A stretch of DNA of 64,000 nucleotides from Candidatus Poseidoniaceae archaeon (GCA_049438185.1 JBMTJI010000005.1:2316-66315); one strand, 5' to 3'; counted from the first letter of the stretch, positions 19,483 through 37,587 are shown. Notes: generated from the sequence alone by a model not told the origin. Program-made: numbers and translations.

Positions 19483-19486
19483 GTTC

Positions 19487-20734: not shown

Positions 20735-23352
20735 CGCACCGCCTCCGTAGCATTGGTTTGTTTCATGTATCGCCAAGAGAAGGCAAACAACATCATGAAG
20801 ATGATGACCGACCAAGCGGCAGCCACTCCGTAAGCGCCTTCTCTAAAGGCTACATCATACACATATGTGATCAAAATATCCGTTTGACCAGGCTCACCAA
20901 AGTAGAGATTTGGGCCTCCATCGGTCATCAAATAAATCACGTTGAACATGTTGAACGTCCAAATGAAACCGAGAAGCGTCAGAGGAATCAATGCACTGCG
21001 TAAATTTGGAAGTGTAAGATGCCGGAATGCAGTCCACCCCATGATTCCATCAATTTCAGCAGCTTCGTACATGTTCTTCGGAAGCGATTGTAATGCACCA
21101 CTAATGGACATCATCATGAAGGGAACGCCAAGCCAAATGTTGACAAGAATCACAATAATTTGAGCACCCGTTGGGTCGGAGAGGAAATCGATGTTGGTAC
21201 CCAAGAGATCGTTTACGAATCCATCAGGTTGGAACATCCCTCTCCATACGAGAACCGAGATGTACGAAGGAACAGCCCATGGCAGCAACAACAGTGTGCG
21301 GTACGCCATCTTCCCTTGAATTCGACTGCGATGCAAGAGGATCGCTAGGAAGAGTCCGATACCGATGTGCGCGGATACGTTGACGAAAGTCCAAACGAGT
21401 GTAAACAAGGTCACTCGCAGGAACCCATCAGAGGAAAACACCTCCCAGAAATTGTCCAAACCAATGAACGATTGATCCCCAAGTTGTGTCTGATTTGCAT
21501 CCGTAAAGGCAAGCCAGAACCCGTACAAGACGGGATAAAACGTGAGGATGGCTAAGGCAAGTAAAGCAGGTGCGACGTAGAAATGGGCAAGTTTGGAATT
21601 TGTTCGGCCAAGCCTTGTATCATTCCATTTTGCAAAACTCAACAAGGCGATTAAGGAGAGAACAATTGCACCAAGTGCGAACATGACTGGCGATGTATTG
21701 CCTGCTTGTGGTCGTTCATCGGCTACAGCTGTGCTTCCAGTTGTCGAATAGATCAGCACGCTGTCTGCAAAAACTTCGATTCGATGTTCTTGTTCAGGCA
21801 CCATGCCTGTAAGGTCGCATTGAATCAATTCTGTCGTTTGTGAAATGATTCGAACCTGTCCTTGTTGAAGCAACTCATCGAATCCATCAGTGCATGTATC
21901 GTACCCGAGAATTGTGCCATTGTTTGTAGATTCAAGTCGAATCTGGGTGTGCAAGGCTCCATCAACAAGGATGTCGTACAACGTGGCATTGGTCATCTGA
22001 AATTCGAGTGAAATTGTACGATATCCTTCTGTTAGGGGGTACGGTTCAGCACGAGAAATTGAATCCATTTGCTCCTGAAGTTGTTGGTTGGCACCTGACA
22101 ATGCTTCCTCAGTGGTGGCAATCTCCGAGTAAGCCTGTTCAAAGGCAGTTGACAGTGGGTCATAGACCAGCGACATCGCCCGAGTTGTTGGAGCCGGTGT
22201 TCCTTCTTTGGTTTGCTCGAGGAAACCTGAAAGCACCTCGTCTTCAGTGATTTCAGCATCGAACTCCAAAGCAACATGTGTTGGCATTGTGTACGTGTCA
22301 ACAGCGAATTCTTTCTGAACAGCCTCGGAAGAGAGCCATAGTGCAAGTTCGGTCGCTGCAACCTTGTTGGCACTTTGCTTGCTAACAGTCCAACCTTTGT
22401 AGGTTACAAGCGGTGACATTCGTTCTCCTGAGGTTTCAACCAGCGGCAACAAGGTTTGACCGATGTTTAAGCGACTTGCCTCATACGTAGCCCAATTCCA
22501 CGGGCCATCGAAAATCATCGCAGCTTTCGAGGAGATGAATTGGTTTTTCATGCCTTCAATCTGTGTCCCTGTAGCGACGACACCATGCTCCAACTCCAAA
22601 TCAAGCATCCATCGCATGGCTTCACTGGAACCGTTGGAGTTGAGGGTTGGTTCACCGTTTTCATCAAAAAGTGAGCCGCCGAATCCTTCCTGTATTGGGA
22701 ACCACCAATACGCAGTCTTGATTGGAATTGCAAGTCCTTGCACATCTTGGTAGGTCAATGATTCAGCGGCCTGGAGCAAATCTTGTTCCGTCCAAGTTTC
22801 ATCTGGATAAGCAAGACCTTGTGCATCAAACAATGCTTTGTTAAAGATTAACGAAAGACAATCTTGGCTTGCAGGTACGCCATACAACGAATCACCATAC
22901 CGCATGGCTTGCAATGCTCGCTCTTCGAACTGCGCCCTATCTTGTGGTGTAAGATGAGGACGTAGATCCTCCAGGAGTGGGAAGCCATCAACTCGAACCT
23001 CTCCAATTGCACCCAGTTGATCACTCGAGAGACGCATCAAATCAGGAGCTTGTCCCCCTTGAGCAGCCGTCATGAACAGTTGGTCTGCATTTCCAAATGG
23101 AACCATTGTCACATCAACGGTTATGTTTGGATGTGAAGATTCAAACGAATTGATTGCGTTCATGAACACTTCTTCTTCCTTACTTTCAGCCGCAAATGTA
23201 TGCCAAACCTCAAGTTCAATGATTCCATTTGAAGCGTTTTCTTCCAAATCTTGCTGGCTATTACCAAGGCAACCTGATAAGAAAATCATCGAAAAAAGGA
23301 CAATTGCAAGAAGTCGCTTCCGAGTGGAAGAACCCAGCATCATGCCCTTCAT
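20731..23352 (-). CDS. Fusion protein: lipoprotein-type carbohydrate substrate-binding protein (MalE-like) fused to ABC permease (MalF-like), 873 aa
   Basis: Signal/lipobox MKGMMLGSSTRKRLLAIVLFSMIFLSGCLG. The SBP domain runs to about aa 420. A roughly 130-aa middle domain is followed by a TM helix and a six-TM permease core with EAA-like region EAAEIDGIMGWTAFRHLTLP. It is a single uninterrupted ORF. Confidence 0.75.
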   Translation of the reverse strand: MKGMMLGSSTRKRLLAIVLFSMIFLSGCLGNSQQDLEENASNGIIELEVWHTFAAESKEEEVFMNAINSFESSHPNITVDVTMVPFGNADQLFMTAAQGGQAPDLMRLSSDQLGAIGEVRVDGFPLLEDLRPHLTPQDRAQFEERALQAMRYGDSLYGVPASQDCLSLIFNKALFDAQGLAYPDETWTEQDLLQAAESLTYQDVQGLAIPIKTAYWWFPIQEGFGGSLFDENGEPTLNSNGSSEAMRWMLDLELEHGVVATGTQIEGMKNQFISSKAAMIFDGPWNWATYEASRLNIGQTLLPLVETSGERMSPLVTYKGWTVSKQSANKVAATELALWLSSEAVQKEFAVDTYTMPTHVALEFDAEITEDEVLSGFLEQTKEGTPAPTTRAMSLVYDPLSTAFEQAYSEIATTEEALSGANQQLQEQMDSISRAEPYPLTEGYRTISLEFQMTNATLYDILVDGALHTQIRLESTNNGTILGYDTCTDGFDELLQQGQVRIISQTTELIQCDLTGMVPEQEHRIEVFADSVLIYSTTGSTAVADERPQAGNTSPVMFALGAIVLSLIALLSFAKWNDTRLGRTNSKLAHFYVAPALLALAILTFYPVLYGFWLAFTDANQTQLGDQSFIGLDNFWEVFSSDGFLRVTLFTLVWTFVNVSAHIGIGLFLAILLHRSRIQGKMAYRTLLLLPWAVPSYISVLVWRGMFQPDGFVNDLLGTNIDFLSDPTGAQIIVILVNIWLGVPFMMMSISGALQSLPKNMYEAAEIDGIMGWTAFRHLTLPNLRSALIPLTLLGFIWTFNMFNVIYLMTDGGPNLYFGEPGQTDILITYVYDVAFREGAYGVAAAWSVIIFMMLFAFSWRYMKQTNATEAVR

Positions 23353-23405: not shown

Positions 23406-24326
23406 TCAACGTGAATTGTGATATGCAACTGGCAAGAGTCCTAATTGCATCCACTCAAGATAAAGCAAAGTCTTCATTTCCATTCGTGCGGCCTGACGCC
23501 ATCGTTTTCGCATGGTTCGTTCAGCCTCGCGACTTGGGATTGGAGCAGGGGAGAATCGACAATTGAGTTCACTGGATTCAGGTATTGGCGAATCCTTCCA
23601 CGCAACACCCCACAAGATCAACCAATCCGGTGGAGCAACTCCGAAATCGACCTCTCTGTCAGGCTCATCGATGGCTCGCTTCACATCCTCGGGAGATATT
23701 TCTCCCAATGCAAGAAGATGGAGCGCCATTGCCGTCCTTCGAACTTGGTTCCAAAGGAAGGCTTCCCCGATGATTTCGAATCCAACCGTTCGTCCGTTAA
23801 CGACCCAAGGTGTGCAGGAGAGGATGGTTCGAATCGGATTCTTTCCAGGCTCCAAACGAGCGAAATTTCTCGCATCGTAGGTTCCTTCAAACAGTTTCAA
23901 CCAATCGACAAAGACCTCACCAGGATCGTTCCAAAATTCAATCCCTTCCAGACGATAACGGTAGATTCGGTGCAAAGCCATTCGGGGGTTCCAATCCATT
24001 TCGACTTCTCGAACATCGAGGAATGAAATCTCATCAGGGAGCAAATCATCCACTGCACGAACAAACTTGCGCGGCGTGATGCTATCCCAAAGTGAACGAG
24101 CAACTCGGACGGTGCCTCCATTGAGCCGAACGTGAACACCTGCATCTGTGCGACTCGAGAGAACGAGGTTGTGTTCTTGTTCCTCTTTCGAGATCCACCC
24201 GAGTTTCTGGAAAGCATGGATGAGTTCACCTTGAACGGTGCGAACATCGGGTTGAATTTGGCTACCATGAAAGGCGTCACCAAGATAGCCAATTCGAAAA
24301 TGCAGACGGGTTTCTGCATCGGACAT
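23406..24326 (-). CDS. truA: tRNA pseudouridine(38-40) synthase TruA/Pus1-like
   Basis: N-terminus RIGYLGDAFHGSQIQ and the catalytic Asp region LSSRTDAGVHV. Confidence 0.8.
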   Translation of the reverse strand: MSDAETRLHFRIGYLGDAFHGSQIQPDVRTVQGELIHAFQKLGWISKEEQEHNLVLSSRTDAGVHVRLNGGTVRVARSLWDSITPRKFVRAVDDLLPDEISFLDVREVEMDWNPRMALHRIYRYRLEGIEFWNDPGEVFVDWLKLFEGTYDARNFARLEPGKNPIRTILSCTPWVVNGRTVGFEIIGEAFLWNQVRRTAMALHLLALGEISPEDVKRAIDEPDREVDFGVAPPDWLILWGVAWKDSPIPESSELNCRFSPAPIPSREAERTMRKRWRQAARMEMKTLLYLEWMQLGLLPVAYHNSR

Positions 24327-24335
24327 ACGTGAGCC

Positions 24336-24908
24336 TCAATCGTCTGAAGTTAGGATTTCTGCAGCTTCCTCAGGAGTGTAACCGAGTCCACCAACAGCCC
24401 AGACAAGTGCTTGCTTGACCCAAGGTTGAACCATTGGGTTTGCCTTTTCGGGGTCAATGACTTCAATCGTATCTACGATGTTTCGAGCAGCCATGTAGAG
24501 AACATCATCCGTTGGAATGTCTGCCATCTCGAGACGGCGGCTGTATCGCTGGAATTCTTTCACGGCTTGTGGGACGCGCCGACATTCGAGTGCAAAAGAA
24601 GCGAAATCGGCGATGTATTCGTCGTTTTCTTCATCGAGTTCCATGGCCTTTTTGTAAGCCATCATGATCTTTGTCCCAGGTACAACATCGTCTTGTTCTT
24701 CCATATTGAGCATGTTTGCAAATTCTGCATACGTGTGCTGAAGGACTGCATTGTCTCGGTTTGAGCGGAGTTTGCCGTCAAGGTTCTCAACCGCTCCTTT
24801 CAAATCACCTGCTCGGAACAATTCCATTGCATCTGCCATTACGTCGTCACTCATGGTTCTCTCACCAGTCCTACCAAAAATATGGGGTTCTTGAACACAA
24901 CGGTTCAT
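24336..24908 (-). CDS. Hypothetical acidic helical protein
   Basis: ORF with a 4-nt overlap to the next gene. No motif recognised. Confidence 0.4.
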   Translation of the reverse strand: MNRCVQEPHIFGRTGERTMSDDVMADAMELFRAGDLKGAVENLDGKLRSNRDNAVLQHTYAEFANMLNMEEQDDVVPGTKIMMAYKKAMELDEENDEYIADFASFALECRRVPQAVKEFQRYSRRLEMADIPTDDVLYMAARNIVDTIEVIDPEKANPMVQPWVKQALVWAVGGLGYTPEEAAEILTSDD

Positions 24909-25945
24909 TCTTGTCCTTGATTTTGTTGGGTTAGAATGTCTGCAAGGTTGTCCAACTTCGTGGATTGGCTGTGCTTTTTGTGCATTTCATTCAGCAGAGT
25001 CTTGGTATCTTCCCAACCTCGGATTTTGTAAAAACAATGTTTTGGATCTGGCCGTACTGTACGGATTGTTCGTTGGTAAAACATCAATGCAAAGAAGGAT
25101 TTGAGAAGACTCTTACCTGCTTTTTCAACGGAAGTATCGTTCTCTTTTTCCGGTAGGTTTGGAGAAATACCAACGCTACCTCCAACAGATTCTTCTACGA
25201 TTCCGACGCCAGAATCTGTAAGGATGGTGAGTGTTGCAAACCCAGTCATTGTTCCAAACGGTGTGCGTTCGACTTGAACTTCTGAAATTCGGTCAAACAA
25301 GATACGACGGTGAGCCCGACTTAGCAAGAAAGCATGCTTGAAGATGACAGCATTGCTTGTGATGGCGTAATCGAAACTTCGCTGATAGTAGAAGACCAAC
25401 GCCCAAAAGGTCAATGTGAGAGCCAATCCGGAAACAAGGAAATTGTACTTCAAACCAAGGAAAGGCTCTACATCTGCATCCGAGAACATATCACGAACAA
25501 GTGCAATGAGACCATCGAGCTGAATGAGAACCGGAAGGAAGGTTGCGAGAAGCAGCCAAACAGTAACCCACTTCCCAGAGGTTGACGTGTTCATCATGCG
25601 GTTTGTCCATGTAATGGTTGCCATGACCAAGACGAACCCAAACGGAAGTTTGGATCCACCCAATTCCATGACCCAAACAAGAAATTTAGCAACGCCTCCA
25701 GATTCGTCGTTGAGAAGTGAGTCTGGCTTCCAAAACAGCATGTGGACGCCGAAAACGATCAAACCAAGAGCATACATTCCCATGAATCCAACTGGACTTG
25801 GTGATTTCGTGAGAAGAACTTCTTCGCCTTCGATGAGCTTAAATCGGTTTTTCATAGCTTCATCATTGGATGCTTCCGCTGTTTTTTCGGCTACTTCAGA
25901 TTCAGTATTTACGACTTCGTCGGCTTGAATTTCTTCGTCACTCAT
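24905..25945 (-). CDS. Membrane protein with bacterial-PH-like (DUF304/YdbS-type) domains, function unknown
   Basis: Several TM hairpins alternate with EGEEVLL-type segments. Track start at 25972 is GTG. ATGs are at 25969 and 25945. Confidence 0.4.
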   Translation of the reverse strand: MSDEEIQADEVVNTESEVAEKTAEASNDEAMKNRFKLIEGEEVLLTKSPSPVGFMGMYALGLIVFGVHMLFWKPDSLLNDESGGVAKFLVWVMELGGSKLPFGFVLVMATITWTNRMMNTSTSGKWVTVWLLLATFLPVLIQLDGLIALVRDMFSDADVEPFLGLKYNFLVSGLALTLTFWALVFYYQRSFDYAITSNAVIFKHAFLLSRAHRRILFDRISEVQVERTPFGTMTGFATLTILTDSGVGIVEESVGGSVGISPNLPEKENDTSVEKAGKSLLKSFFALMFYQRTIRTVRPDPKHCFYKIRGWEDTKTLLNEMHKKHSQSTKLDNLADILTQQNQGQE

Positions 25946-26023
25946 GCCCTTGCACCAAGGGGTTCTCATCACACAAGCACATAAGCCCTTTGCCGTTTCA
26001 GTTCTTGAAACTGTATCATATGG

Positions 26024-27160
26024 CTAGTGCAACAAACCCCAACTGTGCTCTGCGTTACCGCGAATCCAATCGTACATGCCCTCTTTCCTCACGCCATGCT
26101 CATCCGTTATCACCAAGGACTCGACTTCGAGTGGATATTCGTTGTAGGTGAGATGCGACCATACTCCACCGCGTGTAGGTTGGTGAAAATCCCAATACGC
26201 ACGAGCAACCGCTCGGACTGTAAGCCGTATTGATGTTCTGCCATTTTTCAATTCCACGTGAAATCGTGGAAGATTGTTGGCTTGACGATCTTTTTCTACG
26301 CTCACACGCTTGAACCGCTCGCTTCTTCCATGTATCGCATCGTGAAAGAGGCCACCCTGACTTACTGCGATATGGCTAACATCTCTGCGTTTCCATTCTC
26401 GCTGATCTCGACTAAGAATGGTCGTTGAAAGATGCGGCAGAAACCAATCGAGATAGGAACCATCAGAGAAATGAAGAACACCCCAATACCATGGGACACT
26501 TGGAGCTTGCACGCATACTTTCTGAAAGTAGGCTGTTCCATTTACGTCCTCACCATCGATCGTTCCCGCAACCCTTGTCCCATGAAGTCGAAGGATATCG
26601 TAGCCCAATGAACCGAGATAGGTTGCCGTTGCTTCTCTTGCGGTCGACATGGCTGGATTCCAAGGTGTCATCTTTAATCGAACCGATTGAATTGCATCAT
26701 GTTCCAAATCCAAATTGAGCCAGAACTGTGAACGATCAGGAAGCATCCCCATCGAACAATCTCCCTCGAGCATCGGGACGACCGCTCCACCCCCCTGGCC
26801 TTCTCGACCAGGCCATGAGGAATGGTTGGATGGGACAACGACCATGTCACAAACCTTGGCAATGATCTCATCATGCATCATCGAACCATCAAACCACCAA
26901 GCACAGACCATTCCATCGATTTGAATCGCACCCTCCTCGTCAAATCCTGGCGTTCCTTTTGGTTTCCATTCAACATCATTGATGTGAACGATGTCGTTTT
27001 CCTTGGTCGACCAAAGTACCATCAATTGTTTCCCTGCCATGGGGTGTTCGTCGTCATCAAGCATGACGAGCCACCACCACCAATCCCACGTGAGGTGTTC
27101 AATCGGTGGACGTTGGTTTAATGTCCACAACGTTGAGAAGTCTCCGGCAAATGAATCCAT
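26024..27160 (-). CDS. Trp-rich soluble protein of unknown function, last gene of the ABC-2 operon
   Basis: Contains WDWWWWLVMLDDDEHP and many W/H residues. ATG at 27160 lies 8 nt after the upstream stop and is preceded by GAGGG. The track start at 27382 is GTG and runs through the permease gene. Confidence 0.5.
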   Translation of the reverse strand: MDSFAGDFSTLWTLNQRPPIEHLTWDWWWWLVMLDDDEHPMAGKQLMVLWSTKENDIVHINDVEWKPKGTPGFDEEGAIQIDGMVCAWWFDGSMMHDEIIAKVCDMVVVPSNHSSWPGREGQGGGAVVPMLEGDCSMGMLPDRSQFWLNLDLEHDAIQSVRLKMTPWNPAMSTAREATATYLGSLGYDILRLHGTRVAGTIDGEDVNGTAYFQKVCVQAPSVPWYWGVLHFSDGSYLDWFLPHLSTTILSRDQREWKRRDVSHIAVSQGGLFHDAIHGRSERFKRVSVEKDRQANNLPRFHVELKNGRTSIRLTVRAVARAYWDFHQPTRGGVWSHLTYNEYPLEVESLVITDEHGVRKEGMYDWIRGNAEHSWGLLH

Positions 27161-27168
27161 CTCATCCC

Positions 27169-28506
27169 TCACACAATCTCTTTCGATTTGAAAATTAGTT
27201 GACCTATGAACCAAAAGAACAAGGCCTGGAGAAGTAAGACAACGATTGAAACCACGGAGGTCGCATATGGTCCCATGCCGAGGCCAAGGTCGGATTGAGC
27301 CCATTCCAATGCACTGTACCCAGGCAATTCGTTCCCGCCGAATAAGAAGAACGACCCGTCGTTGTTGGAACCACCAGCCCACGAACCTGCTTCGGTAAAC
27401 ATCGCCATATCAGGCCAGACAAGATATGCACCTGAATCAATGATGCTCATCGACCATCCAACAACCGACATTCGAAGAAAACTCGATTCAGGCACAGACA
27501 TTGAGAGAAGAGCCATTCCGAGTTCCCATGCTGCGATTGGGAGCGCGAGGATAATTCCGTATTTCCACAAGACGCCTAAGAAAGCAAACAGCATACCATA
27601 CACAAGCGTTGCGAGTAGTGCCGCTATCAGTATCGAAAACCAAACACCAAGATCTGCAAATCTGAAGAATTGATCTCCCGGCCCCATGAATCCCGAAATC
27701 AGAGCGAGCATGGAACAAACCACAAGGATGTACGGCCAAACGATGGCGAGATATCCAAGCATTCGGTAGAGGAAAATTTCACCTCTGGCGATTGGTTTTG
27801 CAGTCATGTACTGCATGGTACCCGATGTCATCTCGTCTCGAATCAAGCCAGTTGCGAGGAACAGAGGGATGAAGATACTCAAGAGAAAGACAAATCCTAA
27901 TTTTCCGATTCCAAGGATAAACGCTCGATGTTGGGCTTCCTTACCGTATCGTTCCTCATCGGGGTCTTCATCGACGTTTGGATCAGCAGCAACAACATAC
28001 GTACCACTGATTGCATCGTACGACAAGATGATGTTGCACGGAATGCCATCGCCGTTGGCGTCTTGCTGACTCGGCAGCAAGGATGTTCCCGTACAATCTC
28101 CGTCATTATCAAATCCGGTTTTGACTGTTGATGCATCCGAATAATCCCAATCGTAATCGTCTTCGTTGATGTACATTGATGCCGGTTCTGGCTCGATTGG
28201 AGGTGTCAATAAACCGGGATGGGAAAAGGCATCGTAGATGTCAGTACCATACTTGAATTCTTGACCATTGACATATCCATCCCCATCCCAATCGAACGAA
28301 TCACCATCGTTATCGACCGCTTCAATTTCAGTATTCATGGCATCGATATAGAAAAGAAGCACAACGGAGATGGCGAGGAATCCAACACCCAATACAACCC
28401 ATGTTGACAGACGGGTTCGATACTGTCGCATTGTAAATTCAGCGATTGCTGTTGCCTTACGATCGAGAGAAGTCCAAATGGTCTCCCCGCGTTTTTTCTC
28501 CATCAT
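27169..28506 (-). CDS. ABC-2 family permease with a large extracytoplasmic domain carrying DxDxDG Ca-binding loops
   Basis: N-terminal TM, then an extracytoplasmic domain with DNDGDSFDWDGDGYVNGQEF, DNDGDCTG and DANGDGIPCN loops, then 5-6 C-terminal TM helices. 4-nt overlaps on both sides. Confidence 0.65.
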   Translation of the reverse strand: MMEKKRGETIWTSLDRKATAIAEFTMRQYRTRLSTWVVLGVGFLAISVVLLFYIDAMNTEIEAVDNDGDSFDWDGDGYVNGQEFKYGTDIYDAFSHPGLLTPPIEPEPASMYINEDDYDWDYSDASTVKTGFDNDGDCTGTSLLPSQQDANGDGIPCNIILSYDAISGTYVVAADPNVDEDPDEERYGKEAQHRAFILGIGKLGFVFLLSIFIPLFLATGLIRDEMTSGTMQYMTAKPIARGEIFLYRMLGYLAIVWPYILVVCSMLALISGFMGPGDQFFRFADLGVWFSILIAALLATLVYGMLFAFLGVLWKYGIILALPIAAWELGMALLSMSVPESSFLRMSVVGWSMSIIDSGAYLVWPDMAMFTEAGSWAGGSNNDGSFFLFGGNELPGYSALEWAQSDLGLGMGPYATSVVSIVVLLLQALFFWFIGQLIFKSKEIV

Positions 28507-29492
28507 CGGTAACCTCCAGTGAGGTATCCAAGAATCGATTGTAGGTCATCATCAGGGTTGTTGATGACCATGACATCATGCTCATTGTCGACAATAATCC
28601 GTGGTAAACGCTGGTGAAATTCGCCCAAATGGTGCGTGAAAACCTTCAATTTTGTAGGGCTTGGAAATTGTAGACCATGTACAACATCAAGACTCAATAC
28701 GTCTTTTGCCAATGATTTCGCATCGCTGCATTCGATTTCGATGGTATGTGGAATGTTGTCCAATTGTTCCCGAATGGCATGCAGATTTCCAATCGCCAAC
28801 AATCGTCCTTGGTGCAGAATCACAATTTGTTCCGTAATTCGTTCAATTTCGGAAAGAATATGGCTGCTCAGCAATACAGTTCTCCCCATTCGTCCGAGTT
28901 CACGTATGACATTCATAATCGTCGTACGAGCGAGCGGGTCGCAACCCTGAAGCGGTTCATCGAGAATGATCAAATCAGGGTCGTTGACCAGCGCATGGGC
29001 AATTTTCGCACGCTGACGCATACCCTTCGAGTATCTTCCAATTTTCTTGTGCATTACATCGGTTAAGCCAACGAATTCGAGGACGCGTTCTGCCTCTTGT
29101 TTGGCCTCTTCTCTCGAAAGACCATGAAGTCGAGCAAACGTGGATACAAATTCATGCGCAGTCATCCAATCGTACATGTTTTCATTTTCAGGTACGTACC
29201 CAACACGGGCATAAGGTGCAGGGTTTTTCCATGGATTCGTTCCAAACAATCGAACTTCTCCCTGAGTCGGCTGAAGTTTACCCATGAGTAGCTTGAACAA
29301 CGTGGATTTGCCTGCACCATTGAGTCCAAGGATTCCAGTAACTCCTCCACTCAGTGCAAGCGATATGCCGCCGATGGCTTGGTATCTGCCGTAGGTTTTT
29401 CCAACATTGTTGAACATAACAACAGGTGCTTGTGGCTGAGGAGCCCAATGCTTCTCCTGTGCTTTTCCTTCTTGAGCCAAATCTGGAATCAT
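28503..29492 (-). CDS. ABC transporter ATP-binding protein with about 100-aa C-terminal extension
   Basis: Walker [11 protein letters not shown], signature YSKGMRQR, Walker B LIILDEPLQGCD. Confidence 0.8.
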   Translation of the reverse strand: MIPDLAQEGKAQEKHWAPQPQAPVVMFNNVGKTYGRYQAIGGISLALSGGVTGILGLNGAGKSTLFKLLMGKLQPTQGEVRLFGTNPWKNPAPYARVGYVPENENMYDWMTAHEFVSTFARLHGLSREEAKQEAERVLEFVGLTDVMHKKIGRYSKGMRQRAKIAHALVNDPDLIILDEPLQGCDPLARTTIMNVIRELGRMGRTVLLSSHILSEIERITEQIVILHQGRLLAIGNLHAIREQLDNIPHTIEIECSDAKSLAKDVLSLDVVHGLQFPSPTKLKVFTHHLGEFHQRLPRIIVDNEHDVMVINNPDDDLQSILGYLTGGYR

Positions 29493-30493
29493 TCACGCGT
29501 CACCTCCATTGAGGAAACTCGGACGCTCAGAACATACAGTGAGACAGCGTTGATGGCAACGACCGATGCGAGTGACCATATCCACGGGTGATCGTACACA
29601 ACATTTGTGCCGATGAGTGCTTGACCAACGTGTGCGACGGAATCATACGGTGAAATAAGGTAGAGAATGGAACGATCGAACAACCCTTCGACGATCGCAG
29701 CCAGAGTTTTTGTTCCCAAGAGTAAGGCAAGTAAAGCGATACCAGGGAAGAACTTTCCACGCGATACAGAGGAAAGAGCGAGCCCAATGCTTGTGTAGGT
29801 CACAACCAACAGCAATCCACAAAAGACGGTTGTGAGAAACAGAGGGAATGTGTCGAGAATCCACGCCCAACCTCGCCCCATTGCGAGAATGTCTACAAAA
29901 TAGTAGAGAAAGAGTGTTCCAATAATGATGAAGGCTTGAATGGTTGCAACTGCGAGATATTTCATTCCAACATAATCGAAGCGATTGATGGGGCGAGAGA
30001 AATACAGAGCACTGGTTCCGTTGGAACGGTCTTCCGAAATGACACCACCAACAAGCAGAGCTGCAACAAGCGGATAATACAACATGTTTCGAGGGAAGAA
30101 ACCAAGAATATGGCCATAGAGATTGTTTCGACCAACACCCCAAAGTTCGTACAAGCTTGGCTCACCAATAACGGCGAAAAGGAGTGTTAATGCAACATCT
30201 GTCATCGATGCGATCAGCACGAAAATCAGAACCAATTTCGTTGGCACACCCCACGGGCGATGCCCTTTGCGAACTATACCAAGGACATGATGACGGAAGA
30301 TTGCCCAGTTCCGCATCCATCGTGGGTTCAATGAGCCTTCCCATGGAACGTAGACTTGTTCGAAAACCTGTCCTGTCTGAGCAACAGGTTGAGCCACGCT
30401 CGCTTGCTCTGAGGACTCTGATCCCCACGCTGCATCCATCCTACTCTGGCCGGTTACAGGCGTCGAAACATCGATGGTCGCATCTTCTGTCAT
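29489..30493 (-). CDS. ABC-2 family permease (second, different)
   Basis: Six predicted TM helices. 4-nt overlaps with neighbours. Confidence 0.65.
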   Translation of the reverse strand: MTEDATIDVSTPVTGQSRMDAAWGSESSEQASVAQPVAQTGQVFEQVYVPWEGSLNPRWMRNWAIFRHHVLGIVRKGHRPWGVPTKLVLIFVLIASMTDVALTLLFAVIGEPSLYELWGVGRNNLYGHILGFFPRNMLYYPLVAALLVGGVISEDRSNGTSALYFSRPINRFDYVGMKYLAVATIQAFIIIGTLFLYYFVDILAMGRGWAWILDTFPLFLTTVFCGLLLVVTYTSIGLALSSVSRGKFFPGIALLALLLGTKTLAAIVEGLFDRSILYLISPYDSVAHVGQALIGTNVVYDHPWIWSLASVVAINAVSLYVLSVRVSSMEVTRE

Positions 30494-31509
30494 GCACCTG
30501 AACCTCCCATCGATTCTGGGGCGTCGACCTTACGAGCCTCAGCGGGAGAGGCGAGCAAGTCTTCACTCGATTTGACGCCATAACCAAAGCGCTCCATAAT
30601 GACGATAAACAAATCCTCGAGGGAGGCTTCATATTCGTGCATGCGACGAATTTGGGCACCTGTTTCTGCTGCACATTTGAGAATTCGGTGTGTGGTTTTC
30701 TCTCCATCGTGCCGAATCCGCATCATACGTCCTTCTCGCCGAACCTCGAGACCTTCCTTTCCGAGGGCTTGTTCAAGTTCACTGGCCATGCCCCATACAT
30801 GAATTTCAATTTCACGATCGATAGCCTTCAAGTCTTCAATGCGTCCTTGAGCAGCGAGTTTCCCTTTGTGCAACAACACGATGTTTTGACAAACACGCTC
30901 AACATCATCCATCAAATGACTGGCCATGAGAACTGAACGATTCCCGGTATGAACCATGTTTGAAAGTGTCACCAACATGGCCTCACGAGAATCAGCATCG
31001 AGGCCGTTCGAAGGTTCGTCAGCGATAATCAATTGTGGGTCATGAATGATGGAACAAGCCAATTTCGTCGCTTGTTTCATACCCGTTGAGAAAGAGGAAA
31101 TCGGGCGATATCGCAACTCTCCAAGCCCCACATATTCCATTGCAGTATGAGCCCTTGACATTGCTACGACAGGATTCATTCCAAGCAGTTCTCCACTGTA
31201 TCGAACTTGATGAATCGCATCCATCTGTTCGTCCAAAGCATCGTATTCAGGCATATAACCAATCTTTGAACGAATCGCCAATCCATCCGTTCGGATATCA
31301 TGGCCGAGCACTTTGCCTTCGCCAGATGTTGCTTGTATGAGTCCTAGGATGGTTTTGAAAAAGGTGGATTTTCCTGCTCCGTTCGGACCAAGAAGGCCAG
31401 TTGCACCTTGCTCGACTTGAATGCTCAATTTATCGAGAGCAACATGAGGACCATATGATTTGGTCAACTCGTTCGTCTCGATAATGAGGTCATTGGCCAT
31501 TGTTCTCAT
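30490..31509 (-). CDS. ABC transporter ATP-binding protein (second) with C-terminal extension
   Basis: Walker A GPNGAGKSTF, signature FSTGMKQ, Walker B LIIADEPSNGLD. Track start 31545 is GTG. ATGs are at 31509 and 31500. Confidence 0.8.
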   Translation of the reverse strand: MRTMANDLIIETNELTKSYGPHVALDKLSIQVEQGATGLLGPNGAGKSTFFKTILGLIQATSGEGKVLGHDIRTDGLAIRSKIGYMPEYDALDEQMDAIHQVRYSGELLGMNPVVAMSRAHTAMEYVGLGELRYRPISSFSTGMKQATKLACSIIHDPQLIIADEPSNGLDADSREAMLVTLSNMVHTGNRSVLMASHLMDDVERVCQNIVLLHKGKLAAQGRIEDLKAIDREIEIHVWGMASELEQALGKEGLEVRREGRMMRIRHDGEKTTHRILKCAAETGAQIRRMHEYEASLEDLFIVIMERFGYGVKSSEDLLASPAEARKVDAPESMGGSGA

Positions 31510-31551
31510 CAAATACACTGAAAGGAAGTCTTTGAATGCTTTCACATCACG

Positions 31552-33795
31552 TTATTTGAATGTCTTTGAAAAGTCACTGCGCGTTCGAACTGCAATCCCC
31601 TTTCGAAATCGAAGGGCTTCATCTGCATCGCATTGCGATAACCCGTGACCAATCAACGTCCCTTTCTGATCAACGATGAAGCAGGTTTGCCCAGCCTTCA
31701 ACCATGGGTCGCAAGCAAGAATAAATCCATGGAAGACGTTTCTTCCTTTGAGTACAAATTCGACAGCATCCTGTTCAACAACAAGCAAAGGCGGCCCCTG
31801 TCCAATCGCTTTATTCGGCTGAAATTGACCATTTTGTTCAACCGGTAATGTTCGCTGTGCATGAACAATCGTTGAACCCAAATCAGTGATCGAAAGACCA
31901 CCATCCGTGAGTCGAGGGCTCAGGATATGATGACCATCCTTGTCAATGACATTCTTGACTCGGCCTGTCCCGCCGATTACGTACGTACACGATTCGATTA
32001 TTTTCGCTGCGTATTCATAGTTCACGTTCAAGCAGACCACCAATTTGTCGAGGATTTGGCGACGACGAAGTTCATCTCGAAGTTGAGGCAAGTCCGAATC
32101 CTCAACGTGGAGATCATCCTCAAGCATTCCATGTTTCTTCAATAGGTTTGAAGCGTTTTGAATGATTGAGTCGGTGCTGATGTCGAGAATGAGGATACGA
32201 TCGGCTTCGATGTGCAATCGTTGGAGCTCTTGTCGTAACAGAACCGTGTTCAGTCGGCGACTCCAAAGCCAGGATGGACCATCGACTTGAGCGAATGGAT
32301 TGAGATCTTCAAGCGAATAAGGAAGCAAACCAAGCGGTGTTTGCACAAGAATCTCAAGATTGGGGAGTAAGCTGTGAAGTCGGAGGGCGAGCAGATCGCA
32401 TCGTTGACGCCATGGACCAGGTTTGCCATTCAAAATCAACACATCGCTCGAAGCTGTGAATGAGGGTCTCCAGCGTCGTTGCAATTGCTTGCGAGCGACG
32501 AGAACGTGCGGGCGCGTGAGCGTGTCTTCACCACCCCAGCGTTCACCTTTCTTCCGTTGCGTTGCTTGTTTGTTGACGACGTTTGCCCAATCCTGTTCCC
32601 AAATTCCACCGTTCGGGTGATGCTCTCTGGCTGCTGCTCGGTCGTCTTGCACAAGATCTTCGAGTACATCCGAAGACAAACCGAAAGGGAAGGGGCGGGT
32701 TGTTAGCCAAAGGAAGGCTTCACGTAATGCGGGGTGTTGGTGACTTCGTTGCTCAGCAAGTTGCCAAATCGTTCCCTCGTGAATGGCTTGTTTGCATCGT
32801 GAAAGTTCGGCCAATGTCACTTCGAGGTTGTATCGAGCCAACAATGTTGTTCGTTCGTCTTGATTCAGCGCACGTACCTCTTCAGGCGTCCAGGTAACAA
32901 TACACGGTACCAGCTCAGGCCAAGCATGCAAATCCTTCAATCGATAGGTCCCTTGAGGCGAGAGCAAACGATCATCTCGTGCGAACAAGGCATAGGCTGC
33001 TGAATCAAACAAATCTGCACCCAATGCAATCAGCATGGAGAAGAGCATTGGATGGCCACAACCAAACATGTGACGGGGACGTTCTGGAGGGAGTTCACCG
33101 ATGGTCGCAAGCATGATTTTCGCAAGATCTTTGTAACGATGCTTTTCCATGATTGGAACAATTCCACCAATTGGATGGACAGCAAAATCAAATTGACCCA
33201 TTCCTTGAGCGGATTGCTTTCTCAAATCACGATAGATTCCACCTTGAATCGGACCGTTCAGCATCGTTCCCTGAGCCGCTTCAATGGATGCCTCACAACG
33301 TTCGATGGTTGTTAAAACCGCTTGTCGAACTTCTTCTTCGCTCATATCCGGTCGGCTAAAAACGTCGAGCATCGTTGCGATATCCACACCGATGGAACGT
33401 TGAAATTCAACGATTTCTTCAACGCCGACTTCGACATCCCCGTACACATAGGACTGGAAGGTTCCTGAATCGGTCATGATCACCCCGGGGAAATTGATCA
33501 AATCGTGAACACCGTTCTCGACGGCATGTCGTTTAAGATCGTCATGCTTCCAAATGATGTACGAGTTGGTGATTAAGCCCTGAATACCGTATCGGTCCCA
33601 CATTTCTCTAGGCTCGATAGTTCGGATGTTTGGATTTATGACAGGGAGAAGAGCGGGTGTTTCGAGAATACCGTGTGCGGTGTGAATCCTTCCAACTCGC
33701 GCGCAACCATCTCGTGCAGTCACCTCGAACTTTCCCAGATCGCTTTCCTTGCACGGCACAGGGTCGCCTCGAACATCATCTTTCCATGCCGCCAT
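31552..33795 (-). CDS. tgtA: Archaeosine tRNA-guanine transglycosylase (ArcTGT) with C-terminal extension/PUA region
   Basis: Matches along the archaeal TGT catalytic domain. PVINPNIRTI, ITNSYIIWK, MTDSGTFQ, IGVDIATMLD, HMFGCGHPMLFSMLIALGADLFDSAAYALFARDDR, NQDERTTLLARYNL and VKQAIHEGTIWQL align to the Pyrococcus enzyme as recalled from memory. At 747 aa it is longer than the usual 580-650 aa. Confidence 0.85.
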   Translation of the reverse strand: MAAWKDDVRGDPVPCKESDLGKFEVTARDGCARVGRIHTAHGILETPALLPVINPNIRTIEPREMWDRYGIQGLITNSYIIWKHDDLKRHAVENGVHDLINFPGVIMTDSGTFQSYVYGDVEVGVEEIVEFQRSIGVDIATMLDVFSRPDMSEEEVRQAVLTTIERCEASIEAAQGTMLNGPIQGGIYRDLRKQSAQGMGQFDFAVHPIGGIVPIMEKHRYKDLAKIMLATIGELPPERPRHMFGCGHPMLFSMLIALGADLFDSAAYALFARDDRLLSPQGTYRLKDLHAWPELVPCIVTWTPEEVRALNQDERTTLLARYNLEVTLAELSRCKQAIHEGTIWQLAEQRSHQHPALREAFLWLTTRPFPFGLSSDVLEDLVQDDRAAAREHHPNGGIWEQDWANVVNKQATQRKKGERWGGEDTLTRPHVLVARKQLQRRWRPSFTASSDVLILNGKPGPWRQRCDLLALRLHSLLPNLEILVQTPLGLLPYSLEDLNPFAQVDGPSWLWSRRLNTVLLRQELQRLHIEADRILILDISTDSIIQNASNLLKKHGMLEDDLHVEDSDLPQLRDELRRRQILDKLVVCLNVNYEYAAKIIESCTYVIGGTGRVKNVIDKDGHHILSPRLTDGGLSITDLGSTIVHAQRTLPVEQNGQFQPNKAIGQGPPLLVVEQDAVEFVLKGRNVFHGFILACDPWLKAGQTCFIVDQKGTLIGHGLSQCDADEALRFRKGIAVRTRSDFSKTFK

Positions 33796-33821: not shown

Positions 33822-34286
33822 TCAATTGCCCGATGAGACATCAACAAATTCGACGTTTCCATGTGCGAGGATAAATTCACGACCTAGTTCATCGAATGTA
33901 TCAAGAAGACTTGTCGAAAACTGAACAAGTTCAATTTCCGTATCCGCTTGCAAATCATTACGAACACCTTCGAGTGTCCCAGGAGCTGCGCCACACGATA
34001 AACAGGCTCCTGTCAAATCAAGAACAAAGTGAAACCCGGATTCTTTTCGCTCCCATTTTGAGACTGCAATTCCCCCACCATGACCATCCAGGGCCGCTCG
34101 AACCATTCCTAGTCTTGAGAGAAGAACGGGCACGAGGTGATCGGTTTCGACAACATCTTCAATACGGGTGTTTCGAAGACGTTCCTCTTCCTCAGCATCG
34201 GTCTGTTCGGCAATTCGGCGATTGGCTTCTTCTTCCATAGCCTTCTGCGCTTCAAGGGCATACGCTCGAACCAAGTCGTCGTCCAT
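33822..34286 (-). CDS. Nfu/NifU-C-terminal-domain Fe-S scaffold/carrier protein
   Basis: CxxC motif in TGACLSCGAAPGTLEGV. Track start 34304 is TTG. ATG at 34286 is preferred. Confidence 0.55.
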   Translation of the reverse strand: MDDDLVRAYALEAQKAMEEEANRRIAEQTDAEEEERLRNTRIEDVVETDHLVPVLLSRLGMVRAALDGHGGGIAVSKWERKESGFHFVLDLTGACLSCGAAPGTLEGVRNDLQADTEIELVQFSTSLLDTFDELGREFILAHGNVEFVDVSSGN

Positions 34287-34392
34287 GCTATAGCCACACT
34301 GCAACGGCGTTTGAAATCTTGCAAAGCCGTGGTATCGTGAGTGATTGCATCCATTGATAAGGGGGTGACGGTACCAAGGAACAGGTGAGAAG

Positions 34393-35136
34393 ATGACTGA
34401 AGTCTTGTTGCGTGTGGAAAACCTTCACGTTTCAGTTGGCGACACGCCAATTATTCAAGGCATCAGCCTCCAAATCAATCGTGGTGAAATCCATGCAATC
34501 ATGGGTCGAAACGGCGCAGGGAAGTCCACTCTTGCCAGCGTTATTATGGGTCATCCCGCTTACGAAATCACCAGTGGCACCATTCACTACAAAGGAAAGA
34601 ACATCGAAGATATGGAAGTGTTCGAGCGTGCGCGTGCTGGCATGTTTCTTTCCTTCCAATACCCCGCTGCCATTCCTGGCGTTCAAGTAGGTACCTTCCT
34701 GCGCAAGTCAGTCGCTTCGGTACGTGGTGAGGCCCCATCTCCACGGGCCTTCCGTCAAGAATTGAACGAGGCCATGAAGCAACTTGACATGGACAAATCG
34801 TTTCTTTCACGCTACGTCAATGATGGATTCAGCGGTGGTGAGAAAAAGCGCCTCGAAATTCTTCAGATGCTCCTCCTTCAACCAGATTTAGCGCTTCTCG
34901 ATGAAACCGATTCGGGGCTTGATATCGACGCTTTGCGAATTGTCGCTGAAGGAATCAACGCTGTCGCCAAGGAGACTGGATGTTTGATTATTACACACTA
35001 TCAGCGCCTTCTCGATCTCGTGAAGCCTGATGTTGTTCACGTTCTCATCAATGGAAAAATCATCCAAAGTGGCGGCCCTGAACTCGCCTTAAAACTCGAA
35101 AAAGAAGGCTACGATTGGGTGGAAGCCCTTGTCTGA
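34393..35136 (+). CDS. sufC: Fe-S cluster assembly ATPase SufC
   Basis: Walker [11 protein letters not shown], signature FSGGEKKR, Walker [13 protein letters not shown]. Length 247 aa. Confidence 0.9.
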
Positions 35137-35145
35137 GGTGATGCA

Positions 35146-36552: not shown

Positions 36553-37583
36553 CATCGTACCTCGATGCCATAGTTCCAAATCGATCCGAACACCTTTGGC
36601 GCTACACGCCATGGTCAAGGGTTCATCCTGGACGTGTCGATTCCGTTCCTGATGTCGATTCTGCTGTCATCAAGAGTGAAGATTTTGAATTGACAAACAA
36701 GACCTTCGAACCCTTGGCTACAACCGATATCGCACGCATTTTTCTCAATGAAATTCTTCATACAACGACTGTCGTTGCTTGCGAGAACAACGATGGACAC
36801 ATTCACATTCATGCTGGGGGGCATTCTGTTGCAGCCCATCTTCACATCGCTTGCAATTCTGCCTCAAACATCGTCATTCACTTGCATGGCGAGGCCGATT
36901 GGTTTGGTCTGGCACTCACTGGTGACATCCATCCCAACGCCCAATTGAGTGTGGGTATCATCAATGAATTATCAACGGATTCCGTTATGGTTCGTGTTGA
37001 CGATTGGTCGCTTCATCGTGATGCACGATTTGAACTTGCAACACTTTCGATGGGAGGGCATCGAAACAAGTCCGACATTCGCTCAACGCTCAAGGGTTCG
37101 AATGCATCATTGAAGCAATTCATCGCCGTCCACGGGCATGGCACACGACATGATGATCATCACATCGAGATTCATCATCAACAACCGCATACGAACTCAC
37201 ATCTTTTGCTCAATGCTGCATGCGATGACCGGAGTCATTCCATCGGAACTGGTGCGCTAACCATCGATGACGTGGCTCAGCACACCGATGCAGGGCAAGT
37301 CTTCCGAAACCTTTTGCTGTCACCCTCGTCACGTGCAGAAGCAATCCCTGAACTTGAAGTTCTAGCCAACGAAGTCGCAGCTGCACACGGCGCTGCTTCA
37401 GCGCCTATCAATAAAGAGCAACTCCATTACCTCATGAGTCGAGGCTTGTCGAAGGGTGAAGCGACGTCGATGATTGTCGAAGGTTTCCTCGTCGATTCGT
37501 TCACCGGTCTCGATTCAGATCTTGTTCGAGAAGCGATGCAAACTCGACTTACAGTGCATCTTGAATGCCAACTTATTGGGTGA
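36549..37583 (+). CDS. sufD: Fe-S cluster assembly protein SufD
   Basis: SufB paralogue 4 nt downstream of sufB. Shorter at 344 aa. Confidence 0.75.
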
Positions 37584-37587
37584 TACC

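Follow-up and report, generated by a model that had tools for sequence, protein, structure and literature searches.

Characterised members of the AttH/CrtC superfamily bind isoprenoid or polyketide tails in an inter-barrel cavity, and they catalyse hydration, elimination or cyclisation. The superfamily includes CrtC, kievitone hydratase, the archaeal hydroxy-GDGT synthase Hgs, 25-phosphosteroid lyase (25-PSL) and the decalin Diels-Alderases. Isoprene double bonds are the site of action of CrtC, kievitone hydratase and Hgs (bioRxiv 10.1101/2025.10.20.683597; PMC4717167), and 25-PSL acts at the tertiary C25 of the sterol isoprenoid side chain (PMC11061730). In CrtC, W283 and W285 are needed for carbocation stabilisation (PMC12402844). 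Among ABC exporters, PmtABCD of Staphylococcus exports phenol-soluble modulins, and its NBD-TMD-NBD-TMD operon encodes two homodimeric pumps (PMC7527219). Here, we compare these systems with an archaeal gene string that encodes two ABC exporter modules and an AttH-like protein.

The window is the whole stretch of 64,000 nucleotides that was analysed. In the original prediction, a five-gene unit was described on the minus strand, in the order ATPase 1, permease 1, ATPase 2, permease 2 and a Trp-rich (W-rich) protein. The ORFs read from the sequence confirmed the five genes and their positions (Table 1), the 4-nt overlaps, the 8-nt gap and the GAGGG element. An ATGA overlap of 4 nt is present at each of the ATPase 1/permease 1, permease 1/ATPase 2 and ATPase 2/permease 2 junctions, and the W-rich ATG at 27160 lies 8 nt past the permease-2 TGA (27169-27171). 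In this string, which comes from an archaeon of the Poseidoniaceae (Marine Group II), the genes are co-directional and translationally coupled. The host is thus a member of the Poseidoniales, not the halophilic archaeon assumed at first. Each gene of the string has conserved homologues in the hundreds, so the pattern did not arise from chance ORFs. We are highly confident of this overall anatomy. The five-gene string is real, but it is not isolated, being part of a syntenic block from TGT to TruA. Downstream of the string in the window, the W-rich/bPH_2 gap is 51-81 nt, the bPH_2/TPR junction is -4 nt and the TPR/TruA junction is 9 nt.

The longest ORF of ATPase 1 starts with the GTG at 31545, which had been taken as the end of the unit. 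Since the orthologues are 321-339 aa in length, ATPase 1 probably starts at one of two ATG codons (31509 or 31500). The longest W-rich ORF begins at 27382, within permease 2. All of the 31 aligned W-rich homologues begin no more than about 7 residues from the Met at 27160, so the start chosen originally is right.

Table 1. Positions of the features in the window
Feature	Position	Strand	Description
ATPase 1 (NBD)	30490..31509	-	DrrA/ABCA-like ABC ATPase with C-terminal DrrA1-3_C domain
Permease 1	29489..30493	-	ABC-2 membrane protein; Pfam ABC2_membrane_2; ATGA overlap at either end
ATPase 2 (NBD)	28503..29492	-	Paralogue of ATPase 1; C-terminal domain of the same type
Permease 2	27169..28506	-	NosY-like ABC-2 membrane protein; large external loop between TM1 and TM2
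Permease-2 external loop	27898..28344	-	Residues 55-203; acidic; two invariant Cys
GAGGG, Shine-Dalgarno-like	27166-27170	-	5 nt ahead of the W-rich ATG; 2 nt shared with the permease-2 stop codon; read from the sequence
W-rich protein, 378 aa	26024..27160	-	Presumably cytoplasmic, all-beta, two-barrel AttH/CrtC superfamily member; uncurated archaeal family
bPH_2-domain membrane protein	24905..25972	-	Pfam bPH_2 2.4e-7; possibly part of an extended unit
TPR-like acidic protein, 190 aa	24336..24908	-	Weak TPR_19 match; 4-nt overlap with the bPH_2 gene; syntenic

Both ATPases match ABC_tran in Pfam (1.7e-25 for ATPase 1 and 1.8e-30 for ATPase 2). The NBD motifs in the translations are GPNGAGKST and GLNGAGKST, FSTGMKQ and YSKGMRQ, IIADEP and IILDEP, and SH; Walker A, Walker B (DE) and the H-loop are intact in both. 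ATPase 1 also matches PF13732 (DrrA1-3_C, 3.8e-6), and its best NCBIfam matches, drrA and GldA, are both under the cut-off. The nearest PDB sequences are ABCA4/7/3/1, TM0544 (4YER), Rv1218c, NosF and PmtC for ATPase 1, with alignments reaching about residue 300, and ABCA7/1/4/3, NosF and Rv1218c for ATPase 2. Residues 25-322 of ATPase 2 are aligned to positions 3-298 of the 301 positions of the GldA model (NCBIfam). Taken together, the ATPases have end-to-end alignments with GldA, NosF, Rv1218c, TM0544 or PmtC, and both NBDs are of the DrrA/ABCA-like kind. The C-terminal extensions of about 100 aa pointed out in the original prediction are real, but they are an ordinary feature of this NBD subfamily, as the PF13732 match in ATPase 1 illustrates.

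Permease 1 matches ABC2_membrane_2 (1.1e-9) and ABC2_membrane_5 in Pfam, with weak matches to GldF (2e-8) and PmtD. It has a cytoplasmic N-terminal stretch of about 85 aa, and its hydropathy segments fit a six-TM ABC-2 permease. Permease 2 matches ABC2_membrane_2 (1.6e-10). When the AF2 model of permease 2 (pLDDT 74.7) was searched with Foldseek, the top match was NosY (7O0Y_D, TM 0.61, target-normalised), followed by ABCG2, ABCG5/G8 and ABCG25; the Foldseek probability against NosY and the ABCG TMDs is 1.00. The two pairs are distinct, as was proposed: the ATPases are 35% identical (BLASTP), and the permeases align at one short motif only. No SBP domain was detected by Pfam in the genes from TGT to TruA. 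Pfam, NCBIfam, PDB and Foldseek agree with the predicted two ABC-2 ATPase/permease pairs of exporter type lacking an SBP. Judging from these matches, each pair is a standard exporter module of type V (ABC-2 fold), NBD then TMD, with a predicted export function, and the pumps are probably ordinary lipid-type exporters. The nearest SBP is part of a separate sugar importer at 20731-23352.

Three DxDxDG loops had been proposed in the external domain of one permease. The large external loop of permease 2 does carry calcium-loop-like motifs, but they comprise two strict DxDxDG-type motifs (DWDGDG and DANGDG) and two DNDGD motifs. The loop contains VDNDGD, DWDGDGYVNGQE (EF-hand-loop-like), DNDGDC, DANGDGIPC (Excalibur-like) and VDEDPDE. 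DWDGDGYVNGQE is compatible with a 12-residue EF-hand loop at a sub-threshold score (EF-hand_1, 16.6 bits vs a cut-off of 25.4). The other Pfam matches of the loop are also sub-threshold (TSP3_bac, 14.7 vs 25; Excalibur, 11 vs 22), and alignments to calmodulin loops have E values of about 0.8. Conservation of the loop, suggested as a check, is observed: no orthologue, even at 34% identity, has lost the core motifs or either Cys residue. The insert of about 45 aa that bears the EF-hand-like loop is missing from three lineages (L001, L088 and L090). We describe this segment as a conserved, acidic, two-Cys and predicted extracellular loop with calcium-loop-like motifs.

The W-rich protein contains 21 Trp in 378 residues (5.6%), 18 of which are invariant in 32 orthologues, and WDWWWWLVMLDDDEHP is located at residues 25-40. 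No sequence match was found in Pfam, NCBIfam or PDB. Its homologues form a small archaeal family of 245 clusters, which is so far named only in archaeal MAGs and is uncatalogued in Pfam and NCBIfam. The PF07143 and PF17186 HMMs gave no match at E <= 10 among 32 close family members, and none at E <= 1 in a 44-sequence set including distant members; for comparison, Agrobacterium AttH matches them at 3.5e-62 and 2.2e-41, respectively. The profile searches proposed originally thus returned the ABC-2 families, but no CrtC/Lipocalin_9 match for the W-rich protein. Four motif correspondences in the same order were observed between the W-rich protein and the AttH, NE1406 and KHS sequences. According to hhalign against AttH/CrtC, the probability is 69.8% (E 4e-5, 93 columns) with a shallow three-sequence profile, and 4.6% with a single sequence. 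At the fold level, the protein has two consecutive lipocalin-like beta-barrels. By fold, the W-rich protein is a two-beta-barrel member of the AttH/CrtC superfamily, from an unrecorded archaeal branch. Its W run, in which no motif had been recognised before, corresponds in this family to the EWWY strand of AttH.

Residues W224, W226, Y339, E341 and E371 are invariant in 44 family sequences of 21-58% identity. In the comparison with CrtC and kievitone hydratase (7A0Q), W224/W226 align with the cation-pi Trp pair W283/W285 of CrtC in 44 of 44 sequences. The column of the CrtC proton-donor Asp (RgCrtC D268) is occupied by Q213, and is Gln in 43 and His in one of the 44 sequences. This column was taken from hhalign and mapped indirectly via AttH, in which the spacing from the Asp of LDREW to the Trp of WDW is 15, the same as that from D268 to W283. 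As the protein has no TM segment and no signal peptide or signal-like N-terminus in its sequence, it is presumably cytoplasmic.

The W-rich gene is located behind the transporter in 87 of 87 Poseidoniales loci. The block of TGT, the four ABC genes and the W-rich, bPH_2, TPR and TruA genes is syntenic across the order, with the flanking tRNA-modification genes (TGT and TruA) equally conserved in position; therefore, the conserved adjacency is weak evidence of shared function. In nearly all Poseidoniales loci that are long enough, the next gene after the W-rich one is bPH_2 (it was not detected in L068), and in the L001, L075 and L080 lineage the W-rich stop and the bPH_2 start overlap. Outside Poseidoniales, the homologue is found among housekeeping genes with no ABC-2 neighbour at any of 14 loci, so the adjacency proposed as a check holds within the order but not beyond it. 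A geranylgeranyl-reductase-family (GGR) gene adjoins the homologue at two of these 14 loci, both distant (38% and 31% identity) and opposite in gene arrangement. GGR, which accords with an isoprenoid link, is the only partner that recurs outside Marine Group II (MGII), where no transporter recurs. At another locus (L103), the homologue is preceded at a distance of 1.4 kb by a gene of the TGT family, and the interval contains no ABC genes; the position of the W-rich gene may thus be inherited rather than functional.

These features are in line with a W-rich protein that acts, as it would in other archaea, as a stand-alone cytoplasmic isoprenoid enzyme or binder beside two unrelated ABC-2 efflux pumps, the tight spacing being a result of genome streamlining; some other junctions of the block are equally tight in this compact genome. 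We consider this explanation a real contender at clearly less than even chances. Against it, the permease-2/W-rich junction stays at -4 to +8 nt in the window, L001, L004, L088 and L090, the five lineages whose genes were called independently. That junction is as tight as the intra-transporter junctions even though the W-rich protein falls to 36% identity, and the flanking junctions vary more (TGT/ATPase 1, 22-60 nt; W-rich/bPH_2, -1 to +68 nt). Hydrophobic isoprenoid ligands also match lipid-type exporters in theme, and attH offers a parallel, being coupled to the gene of an ABC permease. On this evidence, the AttH-like protein is given close to an even chance of being functionally coupled to the pumps, and we tentatively regard the W-rich protein, at similar and slightly unfavourable odds, as a protein of the cytoplasm that binds or modifies isoprenoids and is co-expressed with exporters of the lipid type. 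For the pumps themselves, a single heterotetramer of ATPase 1, ATPase 2, permease 1 and permease 2 would explain why the four genes are always together and linked by overlaps, and the marked difference between the permeases recalls asymmetric type V transporters such as ABCG5/G8. Such a complex is rather unlikely: the one characterised operon with this gene order encodes PmtAB and PmtCD, each a homodimeric complex of its own (PMC7527219), and neither ATPase has a degenerate site that would point to an obligate heterodimer. By analogy with PmtAB and PmtCD, two separate homodimeric pumps are more likely. A NosFY-like mechanotransducer would move no substrate; ATP would drive an extracellular partner docked on the permease-2 loop, with the W-rich protein as a cytoplasmic accessory or regulator. 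NosY is the closest structure to permease 2, JGI names the orthologues 'multi-copper enzyme maturation permease', and the external loop with its two Cys is conserved. Nevertheless, this mechanism is very improbable, given that genes of the NosD, NosL or NosZ type are absent from the block and the syntenic loci, the NosY match is at the fold level only (19% identity, E 1e-2) and the ABCG TMDs score nearly as high.

In the favoured reading, in which the W-rich protein is coupled to two exporters, the AttH-like protein would bind the terminal isoprene unit of a membrane isoprenoid at the cytoplasmic face; a lipid, a polyprenyl carrier, a carotenoid or a quinone is a candidate ligand. The invariant pair W224/W226 and the W27/W28 strand would form its aromatic, cation-stabilising cavity. 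Since the CrtC proton-donor column is Gln, the chemistry would be something other than proton-initiated hydration, or would use other invariant acids (E341, E371 and D91), or the protein would be a non-catalytic carrier. The ABC-2 modules would extract the hydrophobic molecule from the inner leaflet and flip or export it, as ABCA, ABCG and Pmt-type exporters do, and the permease-2 external loop might serve as a calcium-stabilised docking or hand-off surface outside. A full Poseidoniales-specific pathway, in which an isoprenoid membrane or envelope lipid is modified on the cytoplasmic face and then flipped or exported, with chemistry unlike CrtC-type hydration because of the Gln column, is a long shot. 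If true, it would open a first genetic route to the membrane lipids of Marine Group II, which are still unknown.

Compared with known exporters, the string shares with PmtABCD the gene order NBD-TMD-NBD-TMD and a five-gene operon containing one soluble protein, together with the type V fold and a C-terminal domain on the NBDs, which is ACT-like in Pmt (PMC7527219). Weak NCBIfam or PDB matches include PmtA, PmtC and PmtD, with NCBIfam scores far below the cut-offs (PmtA, 106.9 vs 350 bits; PmtC, 87.9/103.2 vs 375; PmtD, 12.9 vs 220). The soluble protein of Pmt is the transcription regulator PmtR (PMC7527219), whereas that of the window is AttH-like and encoded at the 3' end; Pmt exports peptide toxins, and genes for such toxins are absent here. 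The permease-2 TMD fold is nearest to NosY and then to ABCG2, ABCG5/G8 and ABCG25, and the NBD sequences are nearest to ABCA1/3/4/7 and NosF. However, no NosD, NosL or NosZ genes were found in the window block or the syntenic loci, the ABC subunits are separate polypeptides in contrast to the ABCA and ABCG fusions, and the EF-hand/Excalibur-like two-Cys loop has no counterpart among the NosY, ABCG and ABCA matches.

The closest known counterparts of the W-rich protein are AttH (NE1406, PDB 2ICH; Agrobacterium AttH of the attEFGH locus) and the CrtC/Lipocalin_9 families (PF07143 and PF17186). The AttH strands EWWY, GxAW..WDW..DG and YWEG correspond to DWWW, GTAY..WYW..DG and YNEY in the same order, and the conserved Asp of AWLDREW is replaced by Gln. 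Agrobacterium attH is located directly behind an ABC permease gene with an 11-nt overlap on pAtC58, as compared with the 8-nt gap of the W-rich gene. Agrobacterium AttH is an exported lipoprotein starting with MNAKAILLLLCASC, whereas the W-rich protein has neither signal peptide nor lipobox, and the attF and attG permeases are of the FtsX and MacB_PCD type rather than ABC-2. The attH precedent thus differs in compartment and in ABC class. In archaea, the Hgs gene overlaps the rSAM desaturase gene ted (Ted), and no Radical_SAM match is present in the gene calls of the examined Poseidoniales loci. Hgs homologues have been reported from Methanobacteriota and Bathyarchaeota but not from Thermoplasmatota. 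The tetraether synthase Tes was found in 1 of 231 MGII MAGs (PMC8941075); as MGII largely lacks Tes, GDGT is an unlikely substrate of the W-rich protein. Nevertheless, Hgs (JGI gene GBSed_1000338311) sets a precedent in archaea, as an AttH-like enzyme whose substrates are isoprenoid lipids of the membrane (bioRxiv 10.1101/2025.10.20.683597).

The five-gene unit encodes two exporter modules of type V together with a protein, presumably cytoplasmic, that belongs to a new archaeal family of the AttH superfamily. The unit lies in a block that begins with an archaeosine-type TGT and ends with TruA. The four transporter genes had been described as joined by 4-nt overlaps, with a gene for a Trp-rich (W-rich) protein starting 8 nt later behind GAGGG, and this description is correct in the window sequence apart from small details. 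An ATGA overlap is found at each of the three junctions inside the transporter. The permease-2 TGA is followed after 8 nt by the ATG of the W-rich gene, with GAGGG lying across the stop codon. The W-rich start at 27160 is in line with the N-termini of 31 homologues. According to the orthologue lengths, ATPase 1 starts at ATG 31509 or 31500, not at GTG 31545.

Genes of the block from TGT to TruA in the window
Gene	Position	Strand	Remark
Archaeosine-type TGT	31552-33795	minus	first gene of the block
ATPase 1	30490-31545 (longest ORF)	minus	ABC_tran
Permease 1	29489-30493	minus	ABC2_membrane_2
ATPase 2	28503-29492	minus	ABC_tran
Permease 2	27169-28506	minus	ABC2_membrane_2
W-rich gene	26024-27160	minus	start agrees with homologue N-termini
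bPH_2 membrane protein	24905-25972	minus	3' of the W-rich gene
TPR-like protein	24336-24908	minus	after the bPH_2 gene
TruA	23406-24326	minus	last of the block

Between the W-rich and bPH_2 genes, in a gap of 51-81 nt, a small perfect hairpin (GTTTCA AGAAC TGAAAC, 25995-26011) starts 13 nt past the W-rich stop codon; it may mark the end of a transcript or a site of processing. Just downstream of TruA, an alpha-glucan/maltodextrin utilisation island (13002-23352) contains a GH77 4-alpha-glucanotransferase, a glucan phosphorylase, an alpha-amylase with CBM48, an ABC ATPase, a permease and an 873-aa fusion of SBP_bac_1 (LSGCLG lipobox-like N-terminus) to a BPD_transp_1 permease. Riboflavin kinase and aminotransferase genes take the place of this island in more distant Poseidoniales loci. 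Next to TGT (33822-38778), a minus-strand NifU-like gene is followed by plus-strand SufC, SufB, SufD and SufS; the NifU-like gene lies downstream of the divergently transcribed suf genes. In other Poseidoniales loci too, TGT is flanked by genes for a SufC-like ABC ATPase and a NifU-like protein.

The host is a Marine Group II archaeon (MGII, Poseidoniales). MGII are among the commonest archaea of the surface ocean and have never been cultured. A halophilic archaeon had been assumed, and a haloarchaeal origin is ruled out by the GC content (about 48% along the whole window) and by the closest source-named matches, which are Poseidoniales or Euryarchaeota MAGs. Among the matches listed for the W-rich protein and for each of the two permeases, the named sources are Candidatus Poseidoniales/Poseidoniaceae or unclassified 'Euryarchaeota' MAGs. 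One locus (L007, Ca. Poseidoniaceae isolate ME_XS_2301_4_bin25) encodes proteins 95-100% identical to those of the window.

The W-rich protein gave no usable match in Pfam, NCBIfam or the PDB sequences, with a single query, 44 separate members or a profile. Its sole PDB sequence match, an E2 peripheral-subunit-binding domain, was judged to be due to chance. In an exhaustive HMMER search, the family comprised only 245 clusters among 1.84 billion representatives, including full-length members at 21-38% identity. For the few distant members with a named source, the source is a Thermoplasmata, Aenigmarchaeota or Micrarchaeota MAG. Some members are located on very high-GC contigs whose taxon is not known (L094 7737-9167, GC 72%; L095 7017-8990, GC 67%; L106, GC 69%), where the high GC may have given spuriously long ORFs (476 and 657 aa) and so the apparent N-terminal extensions. 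The AlphaFold model is all-beta and confident (pLDDT 85.7, pTM 0.87). AttH (PDB 2ICH) is its top Foldseek match (E 2e-9), in agreement with the AttH/lipocalin-like fold guessed in the original prediction. The protein has no TM segment, and no signal-like hydrophobic stretch can be read at the N-terminus in the alignment; it is presumably cytoplasmic.

The family was compared with the sequences of AttH, NE1406 (the AttH of 2ICH) and kievitone hydratase (KHS). Motifs of these proteins correspond in the same order to motifs of the W-rich protein: FKIEWWYVT to LTWDWWWWL, GEAWLDREW...GWDWFSLHLASG to GTAYFQKVC...PWYWGVLHFSDG, YWEG to YNEY, and GYLEMTGY to GNAEHSWG. Thus a motif can be assigned where none had been recognized, and we read the W run as the family's version of the AttH EWWY strand. 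In hhalign, the 44-sequence family and the shallow three-sequence AttH profile align over 93 central columns with a probability of 69.8% (E 4e-5); the comparison with a single AttH sequence was not significant (4.6%). From the Foldseek ranking, the ordered motifs and the hhalign result, we assign the W-rich protein to the AttH/CrtC superfamily, as a branch that is divergent and uncurated.

The CrtC cavity is located between two barrels; its proton donor is proposed to be D268, and the carbocation is stabilised by W110, W283 and W285 (PMC12402844; PMC4717167). The spacing of 15 from D268 to W283 is the same as that from the Asp of AWLDREW to WDW in AttH. By hhalign, this Asp column corresponds to Q213 of the W-rich protein, the mapping to CrtC D268 being indirect, via AttH. 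Among the 44 family members, the column is occupied by Gln in 43 and by His in one; all 44 have W224, W226, W88, Y339, E341 and E371, and 43 have D91. The Gln at the proton-donor column and the invariant Trp residues suggest a family that retains the aromatic cavity and lacks the known proton donor. The family may use another acid, carry out different chemistry (elimination or pericyclic, as in 25-phosphosteroid lyase or Diels-Alderases), or only bind a ligand.

In the case of the transporter genes, the Pfam search confirmed ABC-2 modules, both permeases matching ABC2_membrane_2 and both ATPases ABC_tran. The two modules are old paralogues: the ATPases are 35% identical, and the permeases have one short motif in common and nothing more. 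The nearest solved relatives of the ATPases among the PDB sequences are ABCA lipid exporters, NosF, Rv1218c, TM0544 and PmtC. The C-terminal ATPase extensions of about 100 aa noted earlier are present but not unusual, since ATPase 1 matches PF13732 (DrrA1-3_C) and several alignments to the solved relatives extend to about residue 300. The extension is the usual C-terminal domain of the DrrA/ABCA-like subfamily, similar to the PmtC ACT-like basket domain and to the ABCA1 R-domain (PMC7527219). The permease-2 model (pLDDT 74.7) is closest by Foldseek to NosY (TM 0.61 normalised to target), followed by ABCG2, ABCG5/G8 and ABCG25, and permease 2 is predicted to have a type V exporter fold. The likeness to NosY is one of fold only. 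Assignment to Nos or Gld was rejected: DrrA and GldA, the top NCBIfam subfamily models of the ATPases, scored under their equivalog cut-offs, and the block contains no Nos or Gld partner genes. It also contains no solute-binding protein, as had been stated.

In permease 2, a loop of 149 residues separates TM1 (residues 36-54) from the next hydrophobic segment (from residue 204) and contains the motifs VDNDGD, DWDGDGYVNGQE, DNDGDC, DANGDGIPC and VDEDPDE and two Cys. Orthologues down to 34% identity retain both Cys and motifs one, three, four and five, the conserved core of the loop; an insert of about 45 residues with the EF-hand-like loop is absent from three lineages (L001, L088, L090). All matches of the loop to EF-hand_1, TSP3_bac and Excalibur in Pfam were below threshold, and 'calcium-binding-like' describes it at the motif level only.

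In a scan of the contigs of GTDB species genomes, the 80 best loci were all from Poseidoniaceae. Distant gene contexts were taken from contigs encoding distant homologues and from one metagenome scan yielding 8 loci. The W-rich protein was found in 87/87 Poseidoniales loci examined (435 matches among GTDB species genomes), in each case flanked by the same block genes. The TGT-to-TruA order was complete wherever the locus was long enough, even in lineages with a W-rich protein at 36-46% identity; the bPH_2 gene was not detected in L068. The complete block is also present on contigs of MAGs titled Salipiger bermudensis (L008), uncultured Rhodobiaceae bacterium (L024) and Verrucomicrobiales bacterium (L068), with W-rich proteins 92, 91 and 62% identical to that of the window, respectively; these are probably archaeal contigs mis-binned into bacterial MAGs.

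According to independent gene calls, the junctions are -4 or -1 nt within the transporter (with one exception of 29 nt), -4 to +8 nt between permease 2 and the W-rich gene, 22-60 nt between TGT and ATPase 1, -1 to +68 nt between the W-rich and bPH_2 genes, and 5-96 nt between TPR and TruA. These distances favour co-translation of the five genes. In one Poseidoniales lineage (L001 9152, L075 9137, L080), the bPH_2 start overlaps the W-rich stop codon, so the unit may extend to six or seven genes there. As evidence for function, however, adjacency inside one order is weak, because the unrelated tRNA-modification genes are equally syntenic. The W-rich gene was expected next to the transporter elsewhere; this is the case throughout the Poseidoniales loci, but an ABC-2 neighbour was found in 0/14 loci outside the order (L087, L092-L097, L099-L101, L103-L106). 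The neighbours there include PolB, TruD, deoxyhypusine synthase, PheRS-beta, GT2, ADH, FtsZ, diphthine-ammonia ligase, and Mo/W-type and branched-chain amino-acid ABC importers. The only recurring neighbour, in 2 of the 14, is a geranylgeranyl reductase (GGR)-family gene directly beside the W-rich member, convergent in L100 (374-2740) and divergent at 65 nt in L104 (4724-7068). These two belong to distant non-MGII lineages, with family members 38% and GGRs 31% identical. In a non-MGII Thermoplasmata contig (L103, 3531-9926), the W-rich member is preceded at 1.4 kb by a TGT-family gene, with no ABC genes between; the proximity to TGT may be ancestral, the ABC genes standing between them only in Poseidoniales. 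A thiolase and DUF35 (ChsH2-like) pair lies 0.7-2.8 kb downstream in the same contig.

From the superfamily chemistry, the invariant Trp cage, the two GGR adjacencies and the archaeal precedent for AttH-like isoprenoid chemistry, the hydroxy-GDGT synthase Hgs (bioRxiv 10.1101/2025.10.20.683597), we infer that the ligand of the W-rich protein would be an isoprenoid tail. GDGT is an unlikely substrate, since MGII largely lack the tetraether synthase Tes (PMC8941075). GDGT plus archaeol amount to < 0.3% of the expected MGII lipid (PMC8473941). More tentatively than this ligand class, the W-rich protein might feed, or be functionally tied to, the exporters; we consider the chances for and against such coupling to be nearly balanced. 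No link of Poseidoniales with ABC-2, NosY or lipocalin was found in the literature searched. If the adjacency reflects inherited gene order only, the result comes down to a pair of ordinary ABC-2 pumps and a newly classified family of proteins. The W-rich protein, whose gene lies directly behind lipid-type exporters, is a concrete candidate for modifying or handling isoprenoid lipids in MGII. The significance would rise if it acts on MGII membrane isoprenoids.

For an archaeal family outside Pfam and NCBIfam, the fold, the signature residues and the probable class of ligand are now assigned. In the Agrobacterium att locus used for comparison, attH, with strong matches to PF07143 and PF17186, follows the ABC ATPase gene attE and two FtsX/MacB ORFs, the second of which it overlaps. 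Agrobacterium AttH starts with a lipoprotein-type signal, whereas the W-rich protein has none. In the homologue searches for both permeases, the matches listed were saturated by Poseidoniales and did not extend past the order. Among characterised systems, PmtABCD alone shares the gene order of the four ABC genes of the window; its PmtAB and PmtCD are separate homodimeric pumps (PMC7527219). The transporters themselves are ordinary ABC-2 pumps. The W-rich protein represents a new family within a known superfamily, and its catalytic column is altered.
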